From: Eledone cirrhosa | Lineage: Eukaryota | Reading direction: 5' to 3' | NCBI GenBank assembly: GCA_964016885.1 | Contig: OZ024743.1 | Coordinates: 215,016,001 to 215,080,000 of the forward strand | Length of the DNA: 64,000 bases | Shown: positions 20,564-63,827 of the stretch, piece by piece | Layout of the letters: each line of letters starts with the position of its first letter | How positions within the stretch are numbered: the first letter of the stretch is position 1 | Notes under the pieces: generated by a model | Told to the model about the DNA's origin: nothing | Seen by the model: the letters and a program-made list of their open reading frames with translations, nothing else | Databases searched by the model: none | Position numbers and translations under genes: made by a program

Positions 20564-20566
<3 letters not shown>

Positions 20567-20775
20567 GAAAAGTCTCAGGACCCCCAAGGCCGAGCTGCGG
20601 CCGTTTGACAGCTAAATCCGAACAAACCCGGCAGTATTACTGGGTCATTTCGGATCTGGCTGTCGAAACGGCTGGAGCTCAGCCTTCGGGGTCCTGACAA
20701 TTTTCCTATTACACAATCTACTAACCTAAGTATCGAGTACTCTGGTGCGTTATGGTCTACCTGGTTCATCACCAC
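20564..20775 (+). mobile_element. Fold-back family F, copy A (3' half of the HHR only)
   Basis: Inverted repeat at 20564-20709, then the tail ..CTAAGTATCGAGTACTCTGGTGCGTTATGGTCTACCTGGTTC shared with the copies at 28578, 33331 and 47795. Confidence 0.75.
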
Positions 20776-20786
20776 ACACACACACA

Positions 20787-23734: not shown

Positions 23735-23974
23735 TAAACATGTTTTGAACAGTTCTTTGATTCTTATATTTCATATACCTGCTCTGTAAATACTCTGATG
23801 TTTTTACATTGAGCTACTTAACTTACTGGTAATAAGGTAGTAGTATATTACTGCCTACCACTATTTAGGGTTTGTATAAACATATATATAACTGCAAATA
23901 GTATAATTAATAAATAGTATAATTAATACTATTAACTGCTCCATATTGTTGAGTTGACATATAATATTACCAAT

Positions 23975-26513
23975 ATGCTAATCAAAGACCAACTCCCCAT
24001 GTCAACCAAGAACATACCAATACCATCCAGGAATACATATGAGAAATTGCTGATCAACAGTGTAAATTCATTTATCAATAGAGTGAGATGGAGGATAATT
24101 CCATTATGATAGAAACAGATCTACCAATGTGAATAATACTAACAAATTTGACTCCTTCGGCTTTAAAACCTTTAAAAGCCCCCCTCATAACACACTACTT
24201 AACTCCTTTGAAAATGATCTAGTTAAACTAGTTAAGAACATTAAATACAATAAGCACCATAATAGAAGCAACACCTTCTTAAACAAACTTAACACCTCTA
24301 TTAATGGATTCAAAACTAGTAATAAAATTATTGTACACGCAGATAAAACCAATAACATATACAGCCTAGATTATAATACTTATAGAAAGTTTATATATAA
24401 TGAACTACATAAAAGCTACAAGAAGACCACCTTGAAAAACTTAGAAAATATAGAGGGATATAATATAGTGTCTAAACTAGGACTTCAGAGGCATACACAA
24501 CCATTCACCCCAAACCCCTCTAGATTCTCTCTGAAGGATCATAAGGAGGACTTCATCAGCAACCCCTCGATAAGACTTATCTGCCCTTCCAAGTCCGACA
24601 TTGATATTATCAGCAAGAACATTTTAGATAAAATCATCCCACAAATTAAACACAAGATACACCTTAAACAATGGGGAAATACGGGTGAAGTTATTGAATC
24701 GTTCAAAGATATCAAGAATAATAAGGACAACAAATTCATTCAATTTGATATCAATTCATACTACACCTCTATTTCCCCTATCCTATTAAATAAGGCACTA
24801 ATCATGGCCATGAACAATAGCAACCTGACTAGAGCCCAGATTGATGTCATCCTTGCGGCCCGTAAAACCATAGTCACCTTCGAGGACCAACTATGGACAC
24901 GCAAGGATACGCACAACAACTTCGACATAACCATGGGATCTAGTGACTCGGCGCAGGTCACTGATTTGGTCGGCCTATACCTTCTTAATGAAATCCATAA
25001 GGACATACCTTACCTCAACGGCGGTTTGTACCGTGATGATTCACTTCTACTTATAGAATATCAAAAAATCTAATATAGAAAGAACTAGAAAACTATTGCA
25101 CAAAACATTCAAAAACTTTAACCTTAGTATCACCATGGACAAAAACACTAAAAATGTTAACTTGCTAGACGCCACACTATACCTAGACTCAAAAATATAT
25201 ACACCTTTCCATAAGCCTAAGGAAAAACTCATTTACGTAGATACCAAGTCTAATCACCCTAGATCAATATTAAACTCTATCTCTAAGGGCGTATCCAATA
25301 GAATCTCTAATCTATCCTATGACGCAAACATATTTAGCAAAAACTCACAATATTATAATCAAGCATTAGCTAGATCTGGCCATAATATAGAAATTGAGTT
25401 CCTACCTAAGAAAACACATAGCTACAACATCATCTCGCACAACATCTCCATGAGGAAACCTAATAATAGGAATAGCAACCACAAGTACACCAAAGCGGAG
25501 GGTGCCACCGGAAGTAACCATTACCACGGAAACTACCGTAGTGCCTTAGGAAGAAACAACACACCAAACACTAAAAACAAAAATAGAAGAAGAAATAATA
25601 CATTTTTCAACCCTCCTTTCAACCTAAATGTCTCCACCAACATACCTAGGGCCTTCTTCTCACTACTAGATAAAAACTTCCCTCTAGGACACAAGTACCA
25701 CAACCTTTTAAACAAAAACACTATTAAAATGTCATACTCTACGACGCCTAACTTAGCATACCACATAGCTAGCAGCAATAAAAGTAAAATTAATTCTTAC
25801 TTCCAACAAACGAAATCACAACCGAATGTAAACCTTCTAAATACCTCTGTAGCAAGCGACCATAGTAACGGCAGTAACAATAGAAATAACACTAGTATAA
25901 GAAATAACACCGGGGTCGACAACCCGAATGTCCAAAATCCTATAGCTACCACCCAGACTTCTGAACTGCATTATAACCAGCGGACTAACACACAGGATAA
26001 TTGTAACTGTAGAGCCAATAGAACCTGCCCTATTAGATAAAAAATGCCTAACCAAGGATATCATATACTCATGCACCGTCACAACTAGCAACTCTTCAGA
26101 AACCTATGTAGGCTTCACTTCTAACTGCTTCAAAATCAGATATAATTCGCACATCCACCCGTTCAAAAAGCACAGTCTAGCCAACTCCACCTCGCTATCT
26201 AGCTACATACACTATCTAAAAACTAAAAAATAAACCTTACACACTCAAATGGGAAGTGATAGGTAGCGCGACTTCGTACAAACCACCTAATAAATTGTGT
26301 AACCTCTGTATACTAGAGACCCACAATATTATCTTCTCTAACCGTAACCTACTTAACCAAAAATCAGAAGTGTTTTCAACGTGCCAGCACCGCTTCAGAC
26401 ATTCCTTCCAAAATTTAAGCCCAATATATAGCAATGTCGGACTTGAACCAAACACCACCTCTAGCATCAAACACCAGGGGCACACCTTATACCACATACC
26501 CAACACTAACTGA
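23975..26513 (+). pseudogene. PLE reverse transcriptase + GIY-YIG endonuclease, frameshifted near 24105, 25070, 26030 and 26230
   Basis: MSTKNIPIPS..FINRVRWR, FGFKTFKSPP, HADKTNNIY, FIQFDINSYY, MGSSDSAQVTDLVGLYLL, GLYRDD, FFNPPF, CNCR..CP, IIYSC..YVGFT, CNLCILE..LLNQKSE..CQH. Confidence 0.92.
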
Positions 26514-28360: not shown

Positions 28361-28545
28361 TAGATACATATACATGTGTAGAATTCATTTGGGAATTTAT
28401 AAAGAGATACCTGGACACACTCTATATACAACGTAAGCCTCCATATGAATAACTCACCCCAATCATTAAAATTACGAAAGAAATCTATTACTACGAATTT
28501 GACTTTTCTCGACTAAATTTGTATTAAATACAACGTTATTATCAA

Positions 28546-28581
<36 letters not shown>

Positions 28582-28591
28582 AACGAGTGGG

Positions 28592-28687
28592 ACCCCGACG
28601 GCTGAGCTCAAGCCGTTTCGACGGCTAATTCTGGACTAAATGAACATCTTTTTCCTGGTATTTGAATAGCCGAGCTTCTCAAGGGGT
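28592..28687 (-). ncRNA. Type I hammerhead ribozyme with U3-A8 variant core and GUC site
   Basis: Minus strand reads ACCCC-TTGAGAA-GCTCGGCTATTC...GAATTAGCCGTC-GAAA-CGGCTTGAGCTCAGCCG-TC-GGGGT; all three stems can pair. Confidence 0.8.
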
Positions 28688-29404
28688 AATTCCATATATG
28701 GTCAAAGTGATTGTCACAGGGATTGGTCAAAAGTTTGTAGTTGAGACATAATAATTCTAAATGGCAATTTGTGGAGGGAAGGGGTAGCTAAACCTGCCAG
28801 TAGGAGAAAGAGGGAGAGGGGGTGGAGGAGACCCATTCATGCGTTGATAGTGCCGGCTACAGCTGGGCGTGAGGTCAAAGAAGATACTAGGGAGGGGGAG
28901 GGGGAGGAAGTCGAAACAGTAAGTAGAACAATAAGGGGTAAATATATAGAAAAATACTGAGAGTGTCAAAAAGCAATTAAATGTAAAAAGAAGATAAACA
29001 ATTTCTGGTTACTATGACCTAAGTCTCTCACTCTAGCCTAGCAATAGTGAGAGACTTAGATCGTAGTGAGAGACTTAGGTCGTAGTAATCAGAAATTGTT
29101 TATTTTCTTTTTACATTTAATTGCTTTTTAACACTCAGTATTTTTCTATATATTTACCCCTTATTGTTCTACTTACTGTTTCGACTTCCTCCTCCTCCTC
29201 CCTAGTATCTTCTTTGACCTCACGCCCAGCTGTAGCCGGCACTATCAACGCATGAATGGGTCTCCTCCACCCCCTCTCCCTCTTTCTCCTACTGGCAGGT
29301 TTAGCAACCACTTCCCTCCACAAATCGCCATTTAGAATTATTATGTCTCAACTACAAACTTTTGACCAATCCCTGTGACAATCACTATTACCATATATGG
29401 AATT

Positions 29405-29500
29405 ACCCCTTGAGAAGCTCGGCTATTCAAATACCAGGATAAAAATGTTCATTTAGTCCAGAATTAGCCGTCGAAACGGCTTGAGATCAGCCGTCGGTGT
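29405..29500 (+). ncRNA. Mirror copy of the U3-A8 hammerhead
   Basis: ACCCC-TTGAGAA-...-GAAA-CGGCTTGAGATCAGCCG-TC-GGTGT, with one stem I mismatch. Confidence 0.72.
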
Positions 29501-29574
29501 CCCACTCTACTACCCTAAGTTTTGAGTACTTTGGTGCGTTATGGTCCACCTTGTTCCTTACCACATATCTTCCG

Positions 29575-29672
<98 letters not shown>

Positions 29673-29859
29673 TGCGTACTAGAAGACAGTGGGCGGACAG
29701 CTTTGAAATTAGTGCTATATATATGCAGTATATGTAGTATTTGAGGACACATGTATTTCTAGTCATTATTTTATTTTACTAATTTTTATTGAACTTCCAT
29801 TTCTGAAAATAACAATGAAAATATCTATGCTTACTAACGAAATTAAAAGGAATGCTGTG

Positions 29860-32569: not shown

Positions 32570-33225
32570 ATCATGAATTAAAAATACTTCTGAAAGTGGA
32601 ATTTTGGCGATGTCTGCAACTAGAAAATAATACTCTTTTAAGATTAATAGAGTTTTGACAGTTAATTATATAAAAATTTTCTTCGATACATAAGTTACAT
32701 AATCTTGAGAAAGCCATATTTCGATATGCAGGTGCTTTAGAAATCGTTCCCCAAGATATTGATTAGTCTATGAATGTGAAAGTGAAGTGGAAGATTTTTT
32801 ATCGGATCTATTAAATGTGTGTTTATGGTTATACCAGGGTTCTTTGAATTTTGTAGAAGTGGCTCCATTATAGTTAAATACTTTGTCTCTAATTTTAACT
32901 GTGCATTTATAAATTACGTTTTTGTCTAAGCAATTATTTTGTAAAGGGCAGTTTGATTTAATTCTACAGTTACATTTTCTTGAGTTGTTGTTGTTCGGAA
33001 CGGTACTATTATTCTGAATATTGTTGTTACAAATATTATTATTGCTATCTTGGTTAGAATGGTTAGGGTTTAAATTTAAGTTGCTATTATTAATTCTATT
33101 TATATTTTGTGCTATGTTCATAGTAGTAGAGTAGGATAGTTTTATAGTGTGTCTGTTAACAGTAGAGAGGTATATGTGGGCTTTAGGAAGATATTTATCT
33201 AGTGCTTTAAAAAATTATTGAATAT
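32570..33225 (-). pseudogene. 5'-truncated Naiad-type PLE: linker + GIY-YIG domain
   Basis: TIKLSYSTT, CNCRIKSNCPLQNNCLDKNVIYKCTV..YNGATSTKFKEPWYNHKHTF..STSLS, CNLCIEE, SSCRHR. Confidence 0.85.
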
Positions 33226-33330
33226 TATACTCCAGAAAAACTGTCGTGTGCTCTGAAACAGTTATAAACATTTATATTTGTTGAATTACCAACAAATTGT
33301 ATAGCCCGTTTGCTTATGTATATATATATA

Positions 33331-33619
<289 letters not shown>

Positions 33620-40602: not shown

Positions 40603-43365
40603 ATAATGTTTGTACATATAACCAGCCTCCTATTCCACTGAAGAATCATACATATACATATTGTTGACAACAGTGTGGGATGGATGCGTCATATATTATG
40701 TTATACTATAATTGTACAATAAGATTCAAAATTAAAATTAAAAAGCTTTTGGTGGAGCACATGTGACAGATAATACAAGATCATCTAGTAAATAAATAAA
40801 ATTAAAGAGACAGTACGCGCTAAAAACTGATTTATGTAGACACCAAGTCTAACCACCCTAGATCCATATTAAACTCTATCACTAAAGGTATTTATAACAT
40901 AATCTCTAATCTATCTCATAACGAAACCATATTTAGCAATAATTTACAGTACTACAATCAGGCATTAGCTAAATCAGGCCATAGTAATGGGATTGAGTTC
41001 CTACCTAGAAAATAACATAGTTCCAACATTGTTTCTGACAATATGGCCATGAGGAATAGCGGTAGTAAGAAGAATAACTACCCCTACACTAATACAAAGG
41101 GTAGTATCAAGCCCAACTCGCACCATAGTAGACACTAAAATATTATAAACATAAATACCTCAATAGATATAAATAACAAAAATAGAAGAACTAATACTTG
41201 TTTCAACCCCCCCTTCAATCTAAACGTCTCTACCAACTTACCTAAGGCCTTCTTCTCAATCCTAAAAAGAAACCTCCCGTCGGGCCACAAGTACCATACG
41301 CTTTTAAATAAAAACACCATTAAAATCTACTACTCTACCACGCCTAACATAGCATACCATATAGTTAGTAGTAATAAAAGAAATATTAATGCTTATCTCC
41401 ATCAAATTAAAACACAAGAGGGAAACTTTCGAAACAACATAATAACTACTAACCCTAATAGCAATAGTAACAATAGTAGTAACAATAATGAAATCAATAA
41501 CATTGGGACCGACAACCATCATAGCTCTAATGCAATCCCTAACAACCAGATGTCTACGCATATAATAACCGACAGGATATAACCCAAAATAAATGTATCT
41601 GTAGATCTAATAGAACCTGCTTAATCAAGGACATCATTTACTCATGCACGGTCAACACTATCAACTCTTCTAAAACCTATATAGGCTCCACTTCGAACTG
41701 CTTCAAGACGAGATACAACTCACACCTTCACTCTTTCAGGAAGCACAATCTAGCCAACTCCACTTCACTATCTTGCTACACACACTATCTGAAAACTAGG
41801 ACTAAATCATATACACTTCAATGGGAAGTAGTAGGTAGGGTAACATCGTATAAACCACCTAATAAATGTTGTAACCTCTATCTTCTAGAGACCCATACTA
41901 TAATCGTTTTGAACCTTAATCTCCTTAATAAAAAAAATCGGAGTGTTTGCATCGTACTAGCACCGCTTCCGACACTATTTCCAAAGCTTTAAACCTTGTA
42001 TATAGCAATGTCAGTTTTGAACTCAGCACCTCCATTAGCACTTCACCTTTAGGGATTGCATTGCACCACTGCACCACACTCTTTGATCCACCCTTTCCTC
42101 TACACAATTCAGCCGACCTATAACTCTATACTCTTAATATAGTAAACTTTGATTACTTATAATTATATAGTGATGGAAATATAATTTGGATACATTTTAA
42201 ATATTAAACGTAACAATGAATTATATATACATTTTCAGTTAAATGTAAAAATTAATATCATTGCATATATAGGATTAATGTAGTAACATAAGGGATTTAT
42301 CTAACTTAAATGCAATATGCAACAATGAATTATGTATACATCTATAATTAAATGTATGGATTAACATTAATAACATTGTATATAAAGCATGTGTTTATTT
42401 ACTCTGGAGATATATCTATTTTACCATGCAAACAGCTATACGGTATTACATAGCTTACCATATACTGGATAGACAGCAATGTAGTAAAACCTTTGATATA
42501 TTTTGGGAGGATAGGCTGTATCTAAGATTAAATTAATAACACTTATATATAACACTTTGTACGGGAATATATAACACTTTGTATGGGAAATTCAATTATG
42601 GCACTTCATAATACTTTATAGGCAACTTTATAATGATACCTTAATGAATTAGGAGAGAGTAGACTGGGATTAAAATTAAATTAAATATAAATATATAGTT
42701 TCTATATTAGGCCCTCAATTATAACACTATATAAAGTACCTTAGAACAATGAGTTTAATTATTATTATAATGATCTAGTTACCTCCCCATACGCATTAGC
42801 TCCCCTTATTTCCATTCCCACTTCCGGGAATTAAACAGTAGTAAAATCTCCCAGCTCTACAAATTTAGTATACGATACGGACTAAATATCACTAAGTTAC
42901 TTTACATTACAAGCCATTACTATGAGAGACACTCAATACAAATATATCGTGACAAATGTAATGGATGTGAAACCTGGAACTTTCTTATTATACACATACA
43001 TATTTGAACTACACAGAAAATATCTCCGCATTGCAACCGCTATAATATAACACCACGCTCGCTTTAAGTGCTTTTATTTTGTATGCAACACCCAGCACAC
43101 TTGATACTTTTGCATGTTCAATTGGTTTATATATGACTAACGCACGTACTGTCTCTTTAATTTTTATTTATTTAGTAGATGCTCTTGTATTATCTGTCAC
43201 ATGTGCTCCACCAAAAGCTTTTCATTTTAATTTTGAATCTTATAGTACAATTATAGTATAACATAATATATGTCGCATCCATCCCACACTGTTGTCCACA
43301 ATATGTTTCTGCATGATTCTTCAGCGGAATAGGAGGCTGGTTATATGTACAAACATTATTAATAA

Positions 43366-47687: not shown

Positions 47688-47794
47688 CCCTCTTCCTGCT
47701 ATATCAAGCGTTAAACTAATCTATCAATTCCATATACTGTACCGATTGCGTTGTTATTTCTGTTTAACTTTTATATATATATATATATATGGAT

Positions 47795-47990
47795 ATAACG
47801 AGGGAATTGTGGTAAGGAATCAGGTGGACCATAACGCCCCAGAGTACTCAATACTTAGGGTAGTAGTTTGGTGATAGAAAAAGGTATGAACCCGACGGCA
47901 GAGCTCAAGCCGTTTCGAAGGCTATTTCAGTACTGAAATAGCCGTCGAAACTGCTTGAGCTCTGCCGTCGGGGTCATACCTGTTCCTATA
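47795..47990 (-). mobile_element. Fold-back family F, copy D
   Basis: Inverted repeat at about 47874-47989 plus the shared tail at 47795-47873. Confidence 0.8.
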
Positions 47991-53608: not shown

Positions 53609-56600
53609 ATGACCTCACTCAGAATAGGCAGCATAAATGCGCGTGGCTTGGTGTCGTCATGGAAGCAGAGCCACCTGCCCAACGTCCTCAGGTCACTAAA
53701 CATAGATGTAGTGGCCATCAGCGAAACCAGAATCTCCGAAGAACGGGCCTTTGCACCGATCTTCGGCGGCTACGATGTGTACGCATCTCCCAGCCGTCCC
53801 GGAACGGGGGTGGAGTTGCTGTGCTTTTTCGTAGAGGTTTGTATCTCGCCATACGGGCCATCTTCCTGGACCCAGAAGGTAAGTTGGTGGTGCTAGACGC
53901 GACCAGCGGAGACGGGCAAACTTTCAGGCTAGTGGCCGTCTATGCCCCGACAAAAGGAGGGCGCCCTGATTTCTTCTGGCGTCTGGAGACCTTTCTTGGA
54001 ACGACCCGCTCTTTAGTGTTAGTGGGCGACTGGAACGGGATCTTAGATGCACGCTGGGAGTGTGTGGGATCAGCGGATAGGGGAGGAGGGTACAAGAGCC
54101 TCACCAACATGCTCAGGCATTTTGAACTGTCTAACAGGTACCGATTGGATTTCCCGAATGTGCCAATGTGGACTTGGACAAATCGCATAGGGTCATCCAG
54201 ATCATATCTAGATAGAGTATTTTATAGGGAAATAGATAGGTCTAGCATAGGCTGTCCACAATTCAAGATAGTCAGCTACACGGACCACAAATTCGTGATC
54301 TGAGTGCTTGACTTAGATCGGCTTCATAGACAAGGACCCGGCTACTGGAAGCTAAACGCGTCCTTACCAGCGCGCAATGCCTAGAGAGACCGGATATGCG
54401 AACTAGTTAAGCGGGCGTTGACGGGAGCCATCGTCAACAACAAGTGGTGGTTTGCTCTGAAAAGAGCAATTAGAATAGAGTCCATTATGTTTAGTAAGGC
54501 TTTAGCAATAGAGAAAAATAGAGCAGAGGGAGAATTAGTTAGAAAATTAGACGAGGCGCTTAGCAAAGGCATCGCAACCACTAGGGATGAACTTTAGTGT
54601 TCACCTCGACGGACTGCCGCGGCTCTCAGCCACTGAGGCGGAGCGTTGCGAAATGCCGATACCAGCCGCTTAAGTACGGAAGGCAATGACAGGCTGCACA
54701 AGGGGTAAATCGCCTGGTTTGGATGGTCTGCCATATGAACTTTACGTACAGATGCCAGACTTGTTCGGAGGACTCTTGGCGGACGTCTACTGCAACTGGC
54801 AACAGAACGGGAGAATTCCCAGCTCTGTGAGACGAGGAGCTGTGGCGCTGCTGAGAAAGGATCCGAACAAGGGGGAAAAGATAGATAATTTCAGGCCTAT
54901 AACTTTGCTAAACACAGAGTTTTAGATTTTGGCCAAGGTGCTCGCAAAGAGGTTGGCGGTTGTCGTTGGAAGTCTGGTGGGAGAGGTGCAGACGTGCGCC
55001 ATTCCCGACAGATCCATCCACGACAACCTTCACCTCATGCGAAACATCGTAGAGAGGGTAGCTAGGGAACTTGATACGTGTGGGTCCTTGATCAATTTAG
55101 ATCAGTCGAAAGCTTTCGATAGGGTCTACCATCGTTACCTAGCGGCAGTCCTGAGGGCGGCTGGCTTTGGGCCCGTCTTGAGAGGCTGGATCGCTGCCAT
55201 GCACAGCGACATCTGCTCTGTGGTGAGAGTGAACGGTCACCTTTCGGAACCGTTCAACATCATGCGCTCGGTCCGCCAAGGATGTCCCCTCTCGTCCCTC
55301 TTCTACGTATTGACTCTCGAGCCATTACTGCACAAACTGAAGACGTTGAAGGGGTCCCGCACAAACTAGGATGCGGAAGATCCGTGTCAGCATATGCGGA
55401 CGATGTCACCGTAGTGGTGTCGAACGCCAAACACATCGAGGCAATCGGCACTACACTAAGAGAATACGAAGCGGTTGCAGGAGCAATGATCAACCAGGAA
55501 AAGTCAGTGGGCCTGCAGCTCGGCACCTGGAGTGGCAGGTCAATGCCGTCCAACAGCGTCGCCGGGCGCTGGACGGACGGTCCGGTTAAATTGCTAGGGA
55601 TCTGGTTCGGTCCGGACCTCCAGAGGGACAAAAGCCGGGACGAGGTGACGAGCAGGGTGGCTTCTCTTACCCAGAAATGGGCGGAGAGGAAGTTATCCCT
55701 GAAAGGTCGAGCGTAGGTGGCCAACGCGTACATCGCGTCCGTCATCTACTACACACCTGACCGTCGTACCTTTTCCTTAGCCCCGCCTGACTGCGCTGGA
55801 GCGTTTGCTCTTTCGCTTTTTGTGGAAGGGACGCGCTCCAATCGTCAGGCGGTCCATCTTCTGTCAACACCCGCTACGTGGAGGGCTGGGCATGCCGTGG
55901 ATGATGATGCGCAGACACGCGCTCAGGCTACGACATCTCCACCTCTTCCTCGACGGTGATCAGGTGTGGTCGCCGTTTGCTAGACACGTCTTTCCCCAGC
56001 TCGTCTCCTTGACGGAGCTGCAGTCCTGGGTCAAGCGAAGACTGAGAGGGAGCGCTTGGAGACTGGAATGTCTTCACGCGCTCACAGCCCTCGACCAATC
56101 GGGCAATGTGATCGGTGGAAACTCCACCTTGGCATTCTATAGAGGATTAGTGGAAGGGAAGAGCGACGACGTACTTGGAGAAACTCTAGGCGTCGACGAA
56201 AATCAACTATCCAATCTCTTCGGAAGGACTTTCGGGCCGGAGCCTATGGACAACTTACATGAATCCCTGGCCTGGCAGTGCTACCGAGGAGCTTTGGCAG
56301 TTCGGGATAAAATCTACAGGCATGGAGGTGCCGTCAGCCGGGCATATCCGAGATGGGCGCAGTGCGACGAAACCGTCCTGCACGCACTCGTCCAGTGTCC
56401 GAAAATTGCTGACTTGTGGGTTTATGTCAAACACCTGCTGTCACGTGTAGGACGGACCCAGCTATCAGCTGAGTCCATCGTGAGGATTGCCCCGCCCTCC
56501 TCCTTTAGTCGGGAAGGGCAGGCAGTTTTTATCTGTCAGGTGGCCATGGCGAACGTGATAGTATGGTGGACACGTTTGAAAGGGCTGAAGACGAGCACTT

Positions 56601-56761
56601 ACCTCTTTGGTGATGCCCTGATTAACTTTTTCCAATTTCATTTGAAAAGGAAAATCAGGGTGGAGAGGGAAGTGCTCTCTTCCCAGCATTTTGTTGAAAG
56701 ATGGGTGAGAGAAGCAAGTATGGCCCGAGTGAATGGGCCTACTCTGAGTATGTGTCTTTAA
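53609..56761 (+). pseudogene. LINE ORF2: APE endonuclease + RT + C-terminal Cys/His domain, disrupted
   Basis: GSINARGL, AISETR, VAVYAP, LVGDWN, SYLDRVF, TDHKFV, KSPGLDGLPYELY, NFRPITLLNT, DQSKAFDRV, VRQGCPLS, AYADDV, CDETVLHALVQC. Confidence 0.93.
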
Positions 56762-60198: not shown

Positions 60199-62040
60199 TT
60201 ATCTCCAGCCTGTATAGGTTGGCCACTGGTGTAGGAGGGAGTTTGTTGCTGCTGCCCTTAGGTTTCCCTCGTGTCTTGCTGTGGGCTCATCCGGGATCCT
60301 GGATAACAAGGTGTCGAGATGTTTCTTAAAGACATCCACCTCCACGTCATGCAAGTCTCGCAGATGCCTCGGCAGCCTGTTGAAGAGTTGAGGGCCCTTG
60401 AATCCCAGGCTATTGCAATACCTGCTCCTTATTCTAGATGTGGAAGACGGGACCTTTGGCACCACACAGTGACGTCCTGTTCGACGGTTGGTCCAGCTCC
60501 CAATGCCAAAGTTTGGTGCTAGTCCCTCCAGGATTTTCCACATGTAGATCACTGCGTATCACTCCCGTCTTCGCTCCAAGGAGTAGAGGTTCAGTTCCTT
60601 CAGCCTCTCCCAGTAGCTTGTCTCCCTCATCTTGGCAATCCTCTTGGTGTAGCTTCGCTGGATTGCCTCAAGCTCTGTGGTTAGTTTGACACTATGGGGT
60701 GACCACAGCTGGGAGCAGTAGTCCAGGCGGCTTAGGACAAAAGTCCTCCACAGTGTCAACATGGTGTCTCGATCTCTTGTAAGGAAAGTCCTCAAGATCC
60801 AGCCAGCGAATCGTCTACATGCTGTCGCCACCTTCATGATGTGTGAAGAAAAAGATGCATCATCGCTCATGTCTATGCCCAGGTCTCGTATCGATTTTGA
60901 CACGGGGATATCGGTCCCTCCTGGTCCTGTGTAGCTGTGTTCCGCTATATTTGTGTTTGTGTTTGCAGGTTTGTATTGTAGGGCTTGGAATTTGCCAGCA
61001 TTAAACTGCATGTTGTTTTCTTCCGCCCATCTGTATATGGCATCCAGATCCTGCTGTAAGAGGGCAGCGTCAGCCGGGTTTTTGATTGCCTGTGCTACCT
61101 TAGTGTCATCAGCATAGCTAGTGAGGGATGTTGTTGCATGCACCACAGCGAGAGAGCCACCAAAAACAGTAGTGGTCCCAGGACTGTCCCCTGAGGCACC
61201 CCACTTGTTATCGGTGCTTCCCTCGAGAGGGCCCCATTTGCTGCGACTGCCTGGCTTCTGTCCCTCAGGAAGCCATGCAGCCACTCACCTACTTTTCCAG
61301 TTATGCCGAGTCCGTGTAGTTTGTGACATATCATTCCGTGGTCGACCTTGTCAAAGGCCTTCGCAAAGTCAAGATATATCACGTCTACATGTGAGCTGTC
61401 TAGTAGCTGTCTCAGTACCCAGTCGTAGTGATGTAGCAGCTGTGTAAGGCAGCTTCTTCCTGGGCGGAAGCCATGTTGCGTGCTAGTCAGGCGGTCATTT
61501 TCTTCGAGGAAAGTGATTAGTTTCTTTCTGACGACTCGCTCCATGACCTTACTGATATGCGAACGTCAGGGAGACTGGCCTATAGTTCTTGGCCTCCGCT
61601 CTACTACCTCCTTTATGGATAGGGCATATTGTGCCTTCTTTCAGCTCCCTGGGTAGTACACCGCTAGCCAAGGAGCTTCTGAAGAGCATCTTCAGTGGAG
61701 TTGCTAAGGCCCGCTTACATATTTTTAGGAGAACTGCTGGGAATCCATCAGGTCCAGCAGCCGAGTCTGTTCTAATTTCATCAATGGCGTACACCACATC
61801 CTCCTCCGTTATGTCTATGTGGTTGATGGTTGCCATTTCTTGATGTAGTGTTGTGGCATCAAAGAACTCCTCTGGCTTCGTTATTTGCATGTGCCTCAGT
61901 GGACATGTGAAGACACTTTTGTACTGTTCGTTCAGTATTTCACATATCTCTTGGGGATTTTCGGTTAATGAACCGTCCGTGTGGAAGAGTGGTCCAATCT
62001 TGCAGTGTACTGAGGCAGTTTCTTTTGCAAATTTAAGAAG
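60199..62040 (-). pseudogene. LINE reverse transcriptase domain, frameshifted
   Basis: AAGPDGFP, KNYRPVSLT, QHGFRPGRSCLTQLL, YLDFAKAFDKVDH, SGVPQGTVLGPLLF, SYADDTK, RLDYCSQLWSP. Confidence 0.92.
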
Positions 62041-63752
62041 GCCTTAGGGTTTGTTTTAATGTTTTCTATGGCCCTGTTCTCTTTCCTTGCCCTCTCATTC
62101 TCATGTGAAAGCTTGAGTGCAATCTCGGTGTCAAGTAGTGCACGTTTCAAATAGGATTCCTTCTTGTTTTGGTTTTGTTGACTATTCAACTGGTTTGAGA
62201 GTTTAGTTCTACGTCTCATAAGGATTTTCCTATCTCTGGGAATAAGATTTTTGTGTCTGTTTGCCTCTTTCTCCGGGACACACTTTTTGCATATGGTGTG
62301 TATCGTTGTCATGAAGTGTTGAAATTGTGTGTTAGTGTCCTGTGTGGCGATGTTTGCACTCCATGTTTGCTTCCGGATTTCACTCTTAATCTTCTTCCAG
62401 TCAGCCCCGTAGAAGTTAAGGCTGGATGGCGTCCCGGAGCTTCTTGGTGGTTTTGTCTCTGTTGGTTCTCTTGGACCACATATCATTAGCTCTACCAAGT
62501 TATGATCCGAGAGAATTGTTGGTGTCACCTTTACATTGTGGATGAGCACTTCGTTGTTTGTAAAACAGAGGTCCAGGACATTTTCGCCTCTTGTTGGGAG
62601 GAGTATTGCTTGCTCCATGAACAGCCTGTGTGTGAGGGCCAGCAGGGATTCCGTCTGTCTCTGTTCTATTGACGTCATTCCAGGGAGGAGGTGGCCCTCA
62701 GGCCATTTGACCTTTGGTAGGTTGAAGTCTCCCAGCAGTAGGATGTTGAGACCCTGGTCCAGTTTGTCAAGGACCTCTTCTATCCTACTTAGGCTATCCT
62801 CAAATTTACCCTCATGACTGGGGGCATCGGGCGGCCGATATGTGACACATATTACCGTCTGTAGTTGCTTCATATGTATTATCAGTGTGTCACAGACTGA
62901 GTTTGAATGTGTCAACAGTACAATTGGTGTGACATCTTCACGGATATACAGAGCAACCCCACCATGAGATCTCTCCTTCCTGTCCGAACGAAATACAGTA
63001 TATTTCGGTATATGTATTTCTGCATCTGCTATACTGCTTGTCAGGTGCGTTTCGGTTAGTGCCATGCATAGTGCTTGATTGCTTATGGCTAAGTCTCCCA
63101 GGTAGGAAATTTTACTCATGTTGCTGAATTTCACCAGGCCCCTGACATTCAGCAGCAGCACTGGTGGTGACTTTTGGGGTGCCAGTAATGGCTGTCGGTA
63201 TGACACCTGGTCTGGTGTCAGCGGCGGCCACTCTGGGTCCCTTAACTGCGGTGGTCTCGAGTGCTGGTGTGGATGACCCTGGCTCTGGAGACGATGCAGC
63301 CAGGTCAGCTGTCCCACAATCTTCTCTGCCATCACTAAAAAATTTTTCTGATCTGCTGCTGCCATCTGTATCTCGTCGGCATGTGCGTGCCTTCTCCTTG
63401 TTGGTGCAGCACGCGCGACATCAGCATACTTCTGGAGCGGCTTATTTCGGCTTTGGCTGGGGCATGTTGCGCGAGTATGATGGGCATAGTTCGTTTGAGA
63501 CCTAGGGTGGGCGAATCTGCATCCCATCCCTGTCTCTCCATGCCAGCATGTCCCGTTCTTGAAAAACTTGCACATTACTTGGTGTTTTTTGCTCCCAGTG
63601 TCTCGGTGCTTTCTGTTCTTTCTTTGAACAGTTGTCCACTGGTCCCTTCTGCGCTTGGTTCTCCTTCGGAAGGTGATTTCGCTTTTCACCTTTGCCCTTA
63701 GCTTGTTGGTTGCCCGGCCTGCCCTCCCTGCCTGTAGCGGAGGGTATATCAT
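61965..63752 (-). CDS. 595-aa open frame: CCCH zinc finger region fused to APE endonuclease
   Basis: CKFFKNGTCWHGETGMGCRFAH, then LLNVRGL, ALTETHL, RSDR..GGVALYI, TYRPP, LLGDFN, NVLDLCFTN and SDHNLV. Confidence 0.8.
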   Translation of the reverse strand: MIYPPLQAGRAGRATNKLRAKVKSEITFRRRTKRRRDQWTTVQRKNRKHRDTGSKKHQVMCKFFKNGTCWHGETGMGCRFAHPRSQTNYAHHTRATCPSQSRNKPLQKYADVARAAPTRRRHAHADEIQMAAADQKNFLVMAEKIVGQLTWLHRLQSQGHPHQHSRPPQLRDPEWPPLTPDQVSYRQPLLAPQKSPPVLLLNVRGLVKFSNMSKISYLGDLAISNQALCMALTETHLTSSIADAEIHIPKYTVFRSDRKERSHGGVALYIREDVTPIVLLTHSNSVCDTLIIHMKQLQTVICVTYRPPDAPSHEGKFEDSLSRIEEVLDKLDQGLNILLLGDFNLPKVKWPEGHLLPGMTSIEQRQTESLLALTHRLFMEQAILLPTRGENVLDLCFTNNEVLIHNVKVTPTILSDHNLVELMICGPREPTETKPPRSSGTPSSLNFYGADWKKIKSEIRKQTWSANIATQDTNTQFQHFMTTIHTICKKCVPEKEANRHKNLIPRDRKILMRRRTKLSNQLNSQQNQNKKESYLKRALLDTEIALKLSHENERARKENRAIENIKTNPKAFLNLQKKLPQYTARLDHSSTRTVH

Positions 63753-63827
63753 TTTCTTCCATATCCCTGAAATATATATAGTAAAATAAATATGGTTTTA
63801 TAAATATAATTTCCATTTATTTAATAT

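Follow-up and report, generated by a model that had tools for sequence, protein, structure and literature searches.

Hammerhead motifs with a U3-A8 core in a Hydra-clade Penelope-like element of Eledone cirrhosa, and a putative C3.A8 phase in the history of the family

Described hammerheads and the fold-back in the window

The role of the hammerhead motifs carried by Penelope-like elements is stated to be unclear in PMC8557442. A U3-A8 core is reported for the Cercyon elements of Schistosoma mansoni, with about 1,300 matches, in PMC4209133; these hammerheads occur as opposite-strand pairs 100-700 bp apart, their palindromic helix III was read as a dimer signal and their in vitro activity was low, and the portions covered of that source describe neither a lineage history nor a C3.A8 phase. 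The combination of a U3-A8 core and opposite-strand pairs in Penelope-like elements has thus been known since 2014 (PMC4209133). Inverted truncated copies with a tail at one end are given as the usual structure in PMC8557442, where File S2 includes Penelope-13_HM, an inverted truncated copy with a hammerhead on each strand. The novelty attached to the present locus by its initial annotation was therefore overstated: the core and the mirror pair are ordinary, and the interest lies in the history of the family.

Hydra-clade hammerheads described in PMC8557442 share with the family studied here the clade as judged by protein motifs, the (TA)n target, a type I motif placed close to the 3' end, bulged bases adjacent to G10.1-C11.1 and a self-complementary stem III. 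The Hydra-clade rows seen in File S2, however, are all C3-G8, with a stem III of 3-4 bp and a loop II of 3-10 nt, whereas the present family has a U3-A8 core, a stem III of 5-6 bp with a palindromic loop of 7-9 nt, and a loop II of 37-39 nt. Unlike this family, Cercyon hammerheads are described as having no real helix III (PMC4209133). A search of 77 metagenome relatives found the motif in 39 (38 C3-G8 and one U3-A8; controls, 2 and 0 of 77), with a stem III of 3-5 bp that is also a short palindrome. The assignment of the motif to a Penelope-like element and the remark that its stem III is longer than in relatives, both made in the initial annotation, were borne out, and what is new is the U3-A8 core together with a palindromic stem III of 5-6 bp and a long loop II in a Hydra-clade element. 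Since C3-G8 is the core of every Hydra-clade entry in File S2 and of 38 of the 39 motifs in relatives, the U3-A8 core is, on these comparisons, derived within the clade. The one metagenome relative with a U3-A8 core (L279:1769) has a short stem III and is probably of independent origin.

The window, a stretch of 64,000 nucleotides of E. cirrhosa DNA, holds two type I motifs, one in each arm of a fold-back; positions follow the standard hammerhead numbering. The left-arm motif, on the minus strand at 28687-28592, begins with a 5-bp stem I (ACCCC/GGGGU), followed by the core UUGAGAA (U3 at 28682, N7 at 28678, A8 at 28677), the G10.1-C11.1 pair, a 2-nt/1-nt internal bulge and a 6-bp stem II closed by a loop II of 39 nt, the variable part of the motif (28628..28666, minus strand). 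GAAA, with G12 at 28619, then leads into a 6-bp stem III, A15.1-CGGCU(UGAGCUC)AGCCG-U16.1, and C17 at 28597, which places the predicted cut between 28597 and 28596. The right-arm motif, on the plus strand at 29405-29500 (U3 29410, A8 29415, C17 29495), is decayed and differs from the left at 4 of 96 positions: C>A in loop III (29486), G>U in stem I (29498) and two changes in loop II (29440 and 29444). The left-arm sequence and the first two of these substitutions had been given correctly in the initial annotation, which had missed the two in loop II and had made no mention of the internal bulge or of the 39-nt length of that loop. Compared with other copies, the right arm is also without 17 nt directly after stem I.

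All of the expected core positions (U4 G5 A6 N7, A9, G12 A13 A14, A15.1-U16.1, H17 and G10.1-C11.1) are present, and the Watson-Crick U3-A8 pair is found in both arms. RNAalifold recovered the three-way junction from 26 copies, and in a helix test 93% of cells were paired in the alignment versus 15-56% when it was slid; a closing helix with an internal loop was predicted beyond stem I, for which no partner in loop II was found. When both strands of the window were scanned with a relaxed type I descriptor at a cut-off of 12, the left arm (score 17) and one score-12 match were returned, the right arm failing because of its stem I change. No Rfam hammerhead reached the gathering score over the window, nor E<=10 over 28400-29700, as expected from the variant core and the long loop II. 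The miRNA-like Rfam matches correspond to the centre of the fold-back and not to a hammerhead family. Just upstream of stem I, at 28691-28700, lies a 10-bp palindrome with a TA run, which is found in most subfamilies and is a possible mimic of the target. Further hammerhead-like cores, at 2456 (+), 31211 (-) and 33821 (+), are of the canonical C3-G8 type, have a stem III that is short and palindromic, and apparently represent a second family in the genome.

The carrier element and its insertion ends

The left arm of the fold-back (28580..29032, minus strand) is a 5'-truncated Penelope-like 3' end, flanked on the left by a (TA)n target (28549..28579), that stops at a short end 17 nt past the predicted cut. 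The right arm (29033..29575, plus strand) is a second truncated copy placed head to head with the first, which stops at a long, tailed end against a (TA)48 target (29576..29671); its tail past the short end (29508..29575), which in tandem arrays forms the beginning of the following unit, is preceded by the 17-nt deletion. A 19-bp tandem duplication (29045..29086, plus strand) lies at the arm junction, and the two arms are identical in 429 of 448 columns (96%). Mini fold-backs with only the 3' half of the motif were found at 33315..33517 (same family), 47773..47990 (an older subfamily) and 20565..20776 (the oldest subfamily seen). The window also contains a nearly full-length, frameshifted open reading frame (ORF) of another Hydra-type Penelope-like family (23963-26423, plus strand), 37-46% identical to the protein of the hammerhead family, with further remnants at 32813-33214 and 40827-41878, and open frames of 326 aa (55781-56758, plus strand) and 610 aa (61968-63797, minus strand), the former resembling a LINE-type ORF2 remnant.

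A first look at the 3.0-Gb genome gave 1,579 motif candidates, and the 3' half of the motif had 53,264 exact genome matches; these counts are of exact-pattern matches, with both arms of one insertion counted, and reversed-pattern controls gave 0 in every genome pattern search. In copies that carry an ORF, the 3' UTR aligns collinearly with the window arm. One intact natural copy has a single ORF of 716 aa from the first Met, within an open frame of 784 aa, which encodes a reverse transcriptase (RT) followed by a C-terminal GIY-YIG-like domain (VIY..YIG) and contains the motifs RWR, DKT, YRDD, CNCPDRSIC (CxCx5C), CxxC and CxH. Hydra-clade features listed in PMC8557442 are an RWK-like motif, DKT, CxCx5C, CxxC, CxH and GIY-YIG, the present protein having RWR where the clade has RWK. 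Searches with the element's protein returned no Pfam family and nothing from the PDB. Judged by these protein motifs, the element whose 3' end carries the hammerhead is a Penelope-like retrotransposon of the Hydra clade, and the family is young, as 784-aa open frames occur in many copies.

The family inserts in (TA)n and has copies both in tandem and inverted, with a tail on one of the two ends. Its tandem array unit is coding, 3,531 bp long and provided with one hammerhead, and 4,669 of 4,670 compared positions were identical between units. A non-LTR retrozyme, made of short non-coding tandem repeats that each contain a hammerhead, was rejected as an identity for the element, whose units code for protein and reach 3,531 bp and which in the window forms an inverted pair. 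The head-to-tail array at L113/L114 (G000:C1:437.20-437.22 Mb) comprises at least four near-identical coding 3,531-bp units and ends at the short end in (TA)n; it is compatible with multimeric or rolling-circle templates. Two sequencing runs labelled as other organisms, X5 and X6, yielded 3 and 4 low-depth contigs 99% like the element's end (L113:575-866), which may reflect a relative, diet or contamination and were left out of the evidence.

Head-to-head pairs were counted 95 times in the fetched loci, 34 of them with an unclassable end. Among the 61 classed at both ends, 56 joined a short end, 17 nt past the cut site, to a long end, about 100 nt past it (p 6e-12), with 3 long-long and 2 short-short pairs. 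The mirror pair is the family's routine insertion form and as such ordinary. All insertions extend past the cut site, and the short end falls directly after the helix closing stem I. In PAc, a Poseidon element of Anolis carolinensis that belongs to another clade and has a canonical C3-G8 minimal motif, two RT start sites immediately downstream of the hammerhead bound the tail, extension takes place on both target strands and uncut RNA is the template (PMC11167929). These features of PAc were shown in vitro, those of the present family in genomic copies only, and the tail measures 30-40 bp in PAc against about 83 here. In the present family, RT would start at two sites, 17 and about 100 nt beyond the cut and one per target strand; each arm would be the product of a single RT event, and the two events together would give the mirror pair. 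As the two window motifs lie on opposite strands, a single transcript holds only one of them in the sense orientation, paired to its own antisense, and dimerisation within one transcript is impossible; both are likely inert passengers.

The 3.8 core pair across the family

Four patterns covering the Y3/R8 combinations, with one downstream anchor, gave 6,972 matches in the genome: 5,267 U3-A8, 1,632 C3.A8, 57 U3.G8 and 16 C3-G8. The UUGANAA core is thus the family majority and not private to the locus, and a CUGANGA search misses the family, as had been foreseen, finding only the 16. The initial annotation had taken the double change as a sign of selection for activity and proposed to look for U3/A8 covariation among genomic copies. 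With C3-G8 observed 16 times against 17.7 expected under independence, there is no excess of that pair, and on these counts positions 3 and 8 do not covary within the family; the inferred selection for activity is not supported. Nor do the 16 form a C3-G8 lineage: 10 of them are copies of the family, scattered, and the other 6 are unrelated joins. A sister family with a C3-G8 core and a gap of 20-50 nt was likewise rejected, its 73 matches reading as accidental joins between flank and truncated ends. The U3.G8 core belongs to a small, older side branch (L201-L205), which accounts, by eye, for about 23 of the 57 matches. A core that looks compensatory in one copy, as U3-A8 did here, therefore need not covary in its family.

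Two other sources of C3 were considered. Misassembly and an indel within the run of Cs were both rejected, as C3 was confirmed to be a substitution, was tied to haplotype (in one haplotype with 566 copies, 95 of the first 100 had it) and recurred in the contigs of run X1, which may be the assembly's own sample, with 24% C at position 3. Mobilisation of C3.A8 copies in trans by U3 masters was rejected as only 5 of 100 same-haplotype copies were U3 and a tree of the ORF gave the same order of groups as the 3' region.

That order was obtained from a 3'-region tree with columns 3 and 8 removed, built on 100 rows (a subsample, at most 14 per group, of the 201 left by a length filter, with 5 unclassified rows out). 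It is a ladder running B, C/D, M1-M3, A, Y. Group B is U3-A8 with a median tip of 0.077; C and D are U3, D being the U3.G8 side branch; M1-M3 are C3.A8, with tips of 0.02-0.03; and group A, to which the window copy belongs, and group Y are again U3-A8, with tips of 0.015 and 0.004-0.01, so that U3-A8 is found in both the oldest and the youngest subfamilies. An arrangement with C3 confined to one side of a branch was rejected (p-AU 0.0007) in a test that left out 4 rows: two long misaligned ones, a single C3 arm paired with a U3 mirror arm, and one U3 copy with the earliest C3-type haplotype. A separate ORF-end tree (32 of 44 rows) gave the same order with clock-like tips and rejected C3 on one side more strongly (p-AU 7e-10). 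From M1 to M3, 37 of 276 columns became fixed. These trees suggest that C3.A8 was a long middle phase of one source lineage, U3 to C3 to U3, a direction that depends on a root placed on B by tip lengths. A source lineage passing through C3.A8 was not found in the portions covered of the open-access literature, including bioRxiv 2026.07.22.740005, PMC4209133, PMC7229834, PMC3884650 and PMC7151607. Under neutrality, a single back-change from C3 to U would have a chance of roughly 1 in 7 (estimated from 5-17% changes per interval), and the return to U3-A8 is thus weak evidence of selection.

The family offers an ordered set of naturally occurring core alleles (U-A, C.A and U.G) in thousands of copies, with intact young elements, in which cleavage rate can be set against genomic success and the need for cleavage becomes testable. 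Taken together, the roughly 1,600 C3.A8 copies in the family's reconstructed history make it likely that efficient self-cutting was not needed for the spread of the element. A stronger form of this statement, that a C3.A8 lineage with a crippled hammerhead spread for long (about 1,600 surviving full-motif copies and 13% change in the 3' region) and then regained U3-A8, amounting to in vivo genomic proof that cleavage is dispensable and to a dated compensatory crossing of a mismatch, is put forward tentatively, as something rather less than an even prospect.

Folding, cleavage and spread of the element

The initial annotation had expected the 6-bp stem III to allow monomeric cleavage. The stem itself is present, and at 5-6 bp across the family, where it lengthened from 5 to 6 bp, it exceeds the 1-2 bp or absent helix III of minimal dimer-only hammerheads; cleavage as a monomer is, however, doubtful for the window copy on the folds predicted here, which are ViennaRNA energies that leave out tertiary contacts and protein. 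Stem III and its loop form a 19-nt near-palindrome (28598..28616, minus strand), with a predicted hairpin of -7.1 and a self-duplex of -30.7 kcal/mol. Because stems II and III repeat each other, a competing 6-bp hairpin (28611..28626, minus strand) can bury G12-A14 in its loop; for the left arm its predicted probability was 0.55, versus 0.35 for stem III, and the hammerhead fold lay 2.0 kcal/mol above the minimum. Two left-arm motifs, in contrast, were predicted to cofold as a double hammerhead at -61.7 kcal/mol, versus -47.6 for two monomers. GAGCUC is kept in all 10 groups, with self-duplex energies of -26 to -31 kcal/mol in intact copies. On these predictions, the window copy would misfold when monomeric and reach the correct fold in a double hammerhead, for which tandem arrays would supply the partner. 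In the models, stem III was favoured in 9 of 46 copies of the window's group A, 11 of 51 C3 copies, 17 of 22 copies of group C and 39 of 40 copies of the youngest subfamily, where monomer cleavage may well occur. As the short palindromic stems III of relatives match the dimer signal described in PMC4209133, the long stem III may be an extended dimer palindrome that can also work alone.

These folds bear on the view taken in the initial annotation, in which the motif works efficiently as a monomeric ribozyme and strict selection for cleavage maintains its U3-A8 pair. Such a ribozyme would agree with the presence of U3-A8 in the oldest and youngest subfamilies, with the growth of stem III and with the correct monomer fold predicted for the youngest copies. 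Natural U3-A8 hammerheads with the same core covariation are described as active in PMC3088659, in a part that draws no tie to Penelope-like elements, and fungal Penelope-like hammerheads with a large stem III are reported to cut as monomers (PMC4209133). Against this stand the 1,632 C3.A8 matches, from a lineage that fixed its 37 columns while mismatched, the lack of a C3-G8 excess, and the misfold favoured in 37 of 46 copies of the window's subfamily; moreover, in a full mutant scan only the G3-C8 swap rescued the 3/8 region (PMC9901934). Strict selection for monomeric cleavage is accordingly regarded as improbable.

The reading given somewhat better than even credence is that the window holds head-to-head truncated 3' ends of a Hydra-clade Penelope-like element in (TA)n, whose U3-A8 type I motifs are predicted to cut best as double hammerheads joined through stem III, probably weakly, and at a step that does not limit the rate of spread. 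Tandem copies would be transcribed into multimeric RNA in which two motifs pair through stem III, or alternatively the element's protein would assist folding; RT would copy mostly uncut RNA; and selection would keep the catalytic fold and tolerate wobble-like 3.8 pairs.

A related possibility is that cleavage was needed throughout, and that C3.A8 copies retained enough of it, with the help of protein or a dimer, either by a protonated A.C wobble or by a register shift in which C3 pairs with G7 and A8 is extra. The lineages show only wobble-like mismatches (C.A and U.G), 97-100% of copies in each of the three C3 groups have G at N7, and the rest of the fold was conserved during the C3.A8 phase, although a fixed G7 is expected from descent alone. 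The effect on activity reportedly depends on context, as Przybilski and Hammann are said to have found in 2007. In the mutant scan, however, single changes at 3 or 8 had low activity (PMC9901934), and in PAc core mutants insertion in vitro was unaffected, while cleavage required the protein (PMC11167929). A constant need for cleavage is on balance unlikely.

The constraint on the fold bears on a further alternative, that it has lost cleavage altogether and persists as a landmark where RT binds or initiates, or as part of an internal promoter. The read-through of the cut site in every insertion and the position of the short end directly after the helix closing stem I would suit a landmark, as would the report that no PAc reads end at the cut site (PMC11167929). 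Between the ten groups, the columns that varied were 0 of 12 in the strict core, 5 of 32 in stems, 1 of 7 in loop III, 22 of 37 in loop II and 83 of 148 upstream, N7 taking U, A, C and G; the core figure is partly circular because the search patterns fixed core letters. A core-free search, read by eye in the first 100 of 4,740 matches, gave 9 scattered deviations in 900 strict core cells, with N7 other than G in 20 copies and C at position 3 in 16. Changes on both sides were seen in one stem II pair in the RNAalifold set and in 2 of 18 pairs overall, a thin covariation within the family. During the C3.A8 phase, 1 of 52 structured columns changed, versus 37 of 222 others (p 0.003), or 1 of 36 with pattern-fixed columns removed (p 0.04), and the sole structured change gave stem III one more pair. 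Taken by itself, the invariance of the core during the C3.A8 phase (0 of 12 at a background of 17%) was not significant, so that it does not tell catalysis from a purely structural role. Over the whole family, the fold is under constraint, with the core and helices conserved and N7 and loop II free. The catalytic signature, invariant G5, A6, A9, G12, A13, A14 and C17 together with a free N7, is retained even though the oldest groups have diverged by about 34%; it argues against a mere landmark, which is considered quite unlikely. A separate observation concerns loop II, where a recurrent A>C (T>G) change in AAAAT/ATTTT was seen at many loci (e.g., 28643-28652); it turns up in either arm and among unrelated copies, as if at a mutational hot spot.
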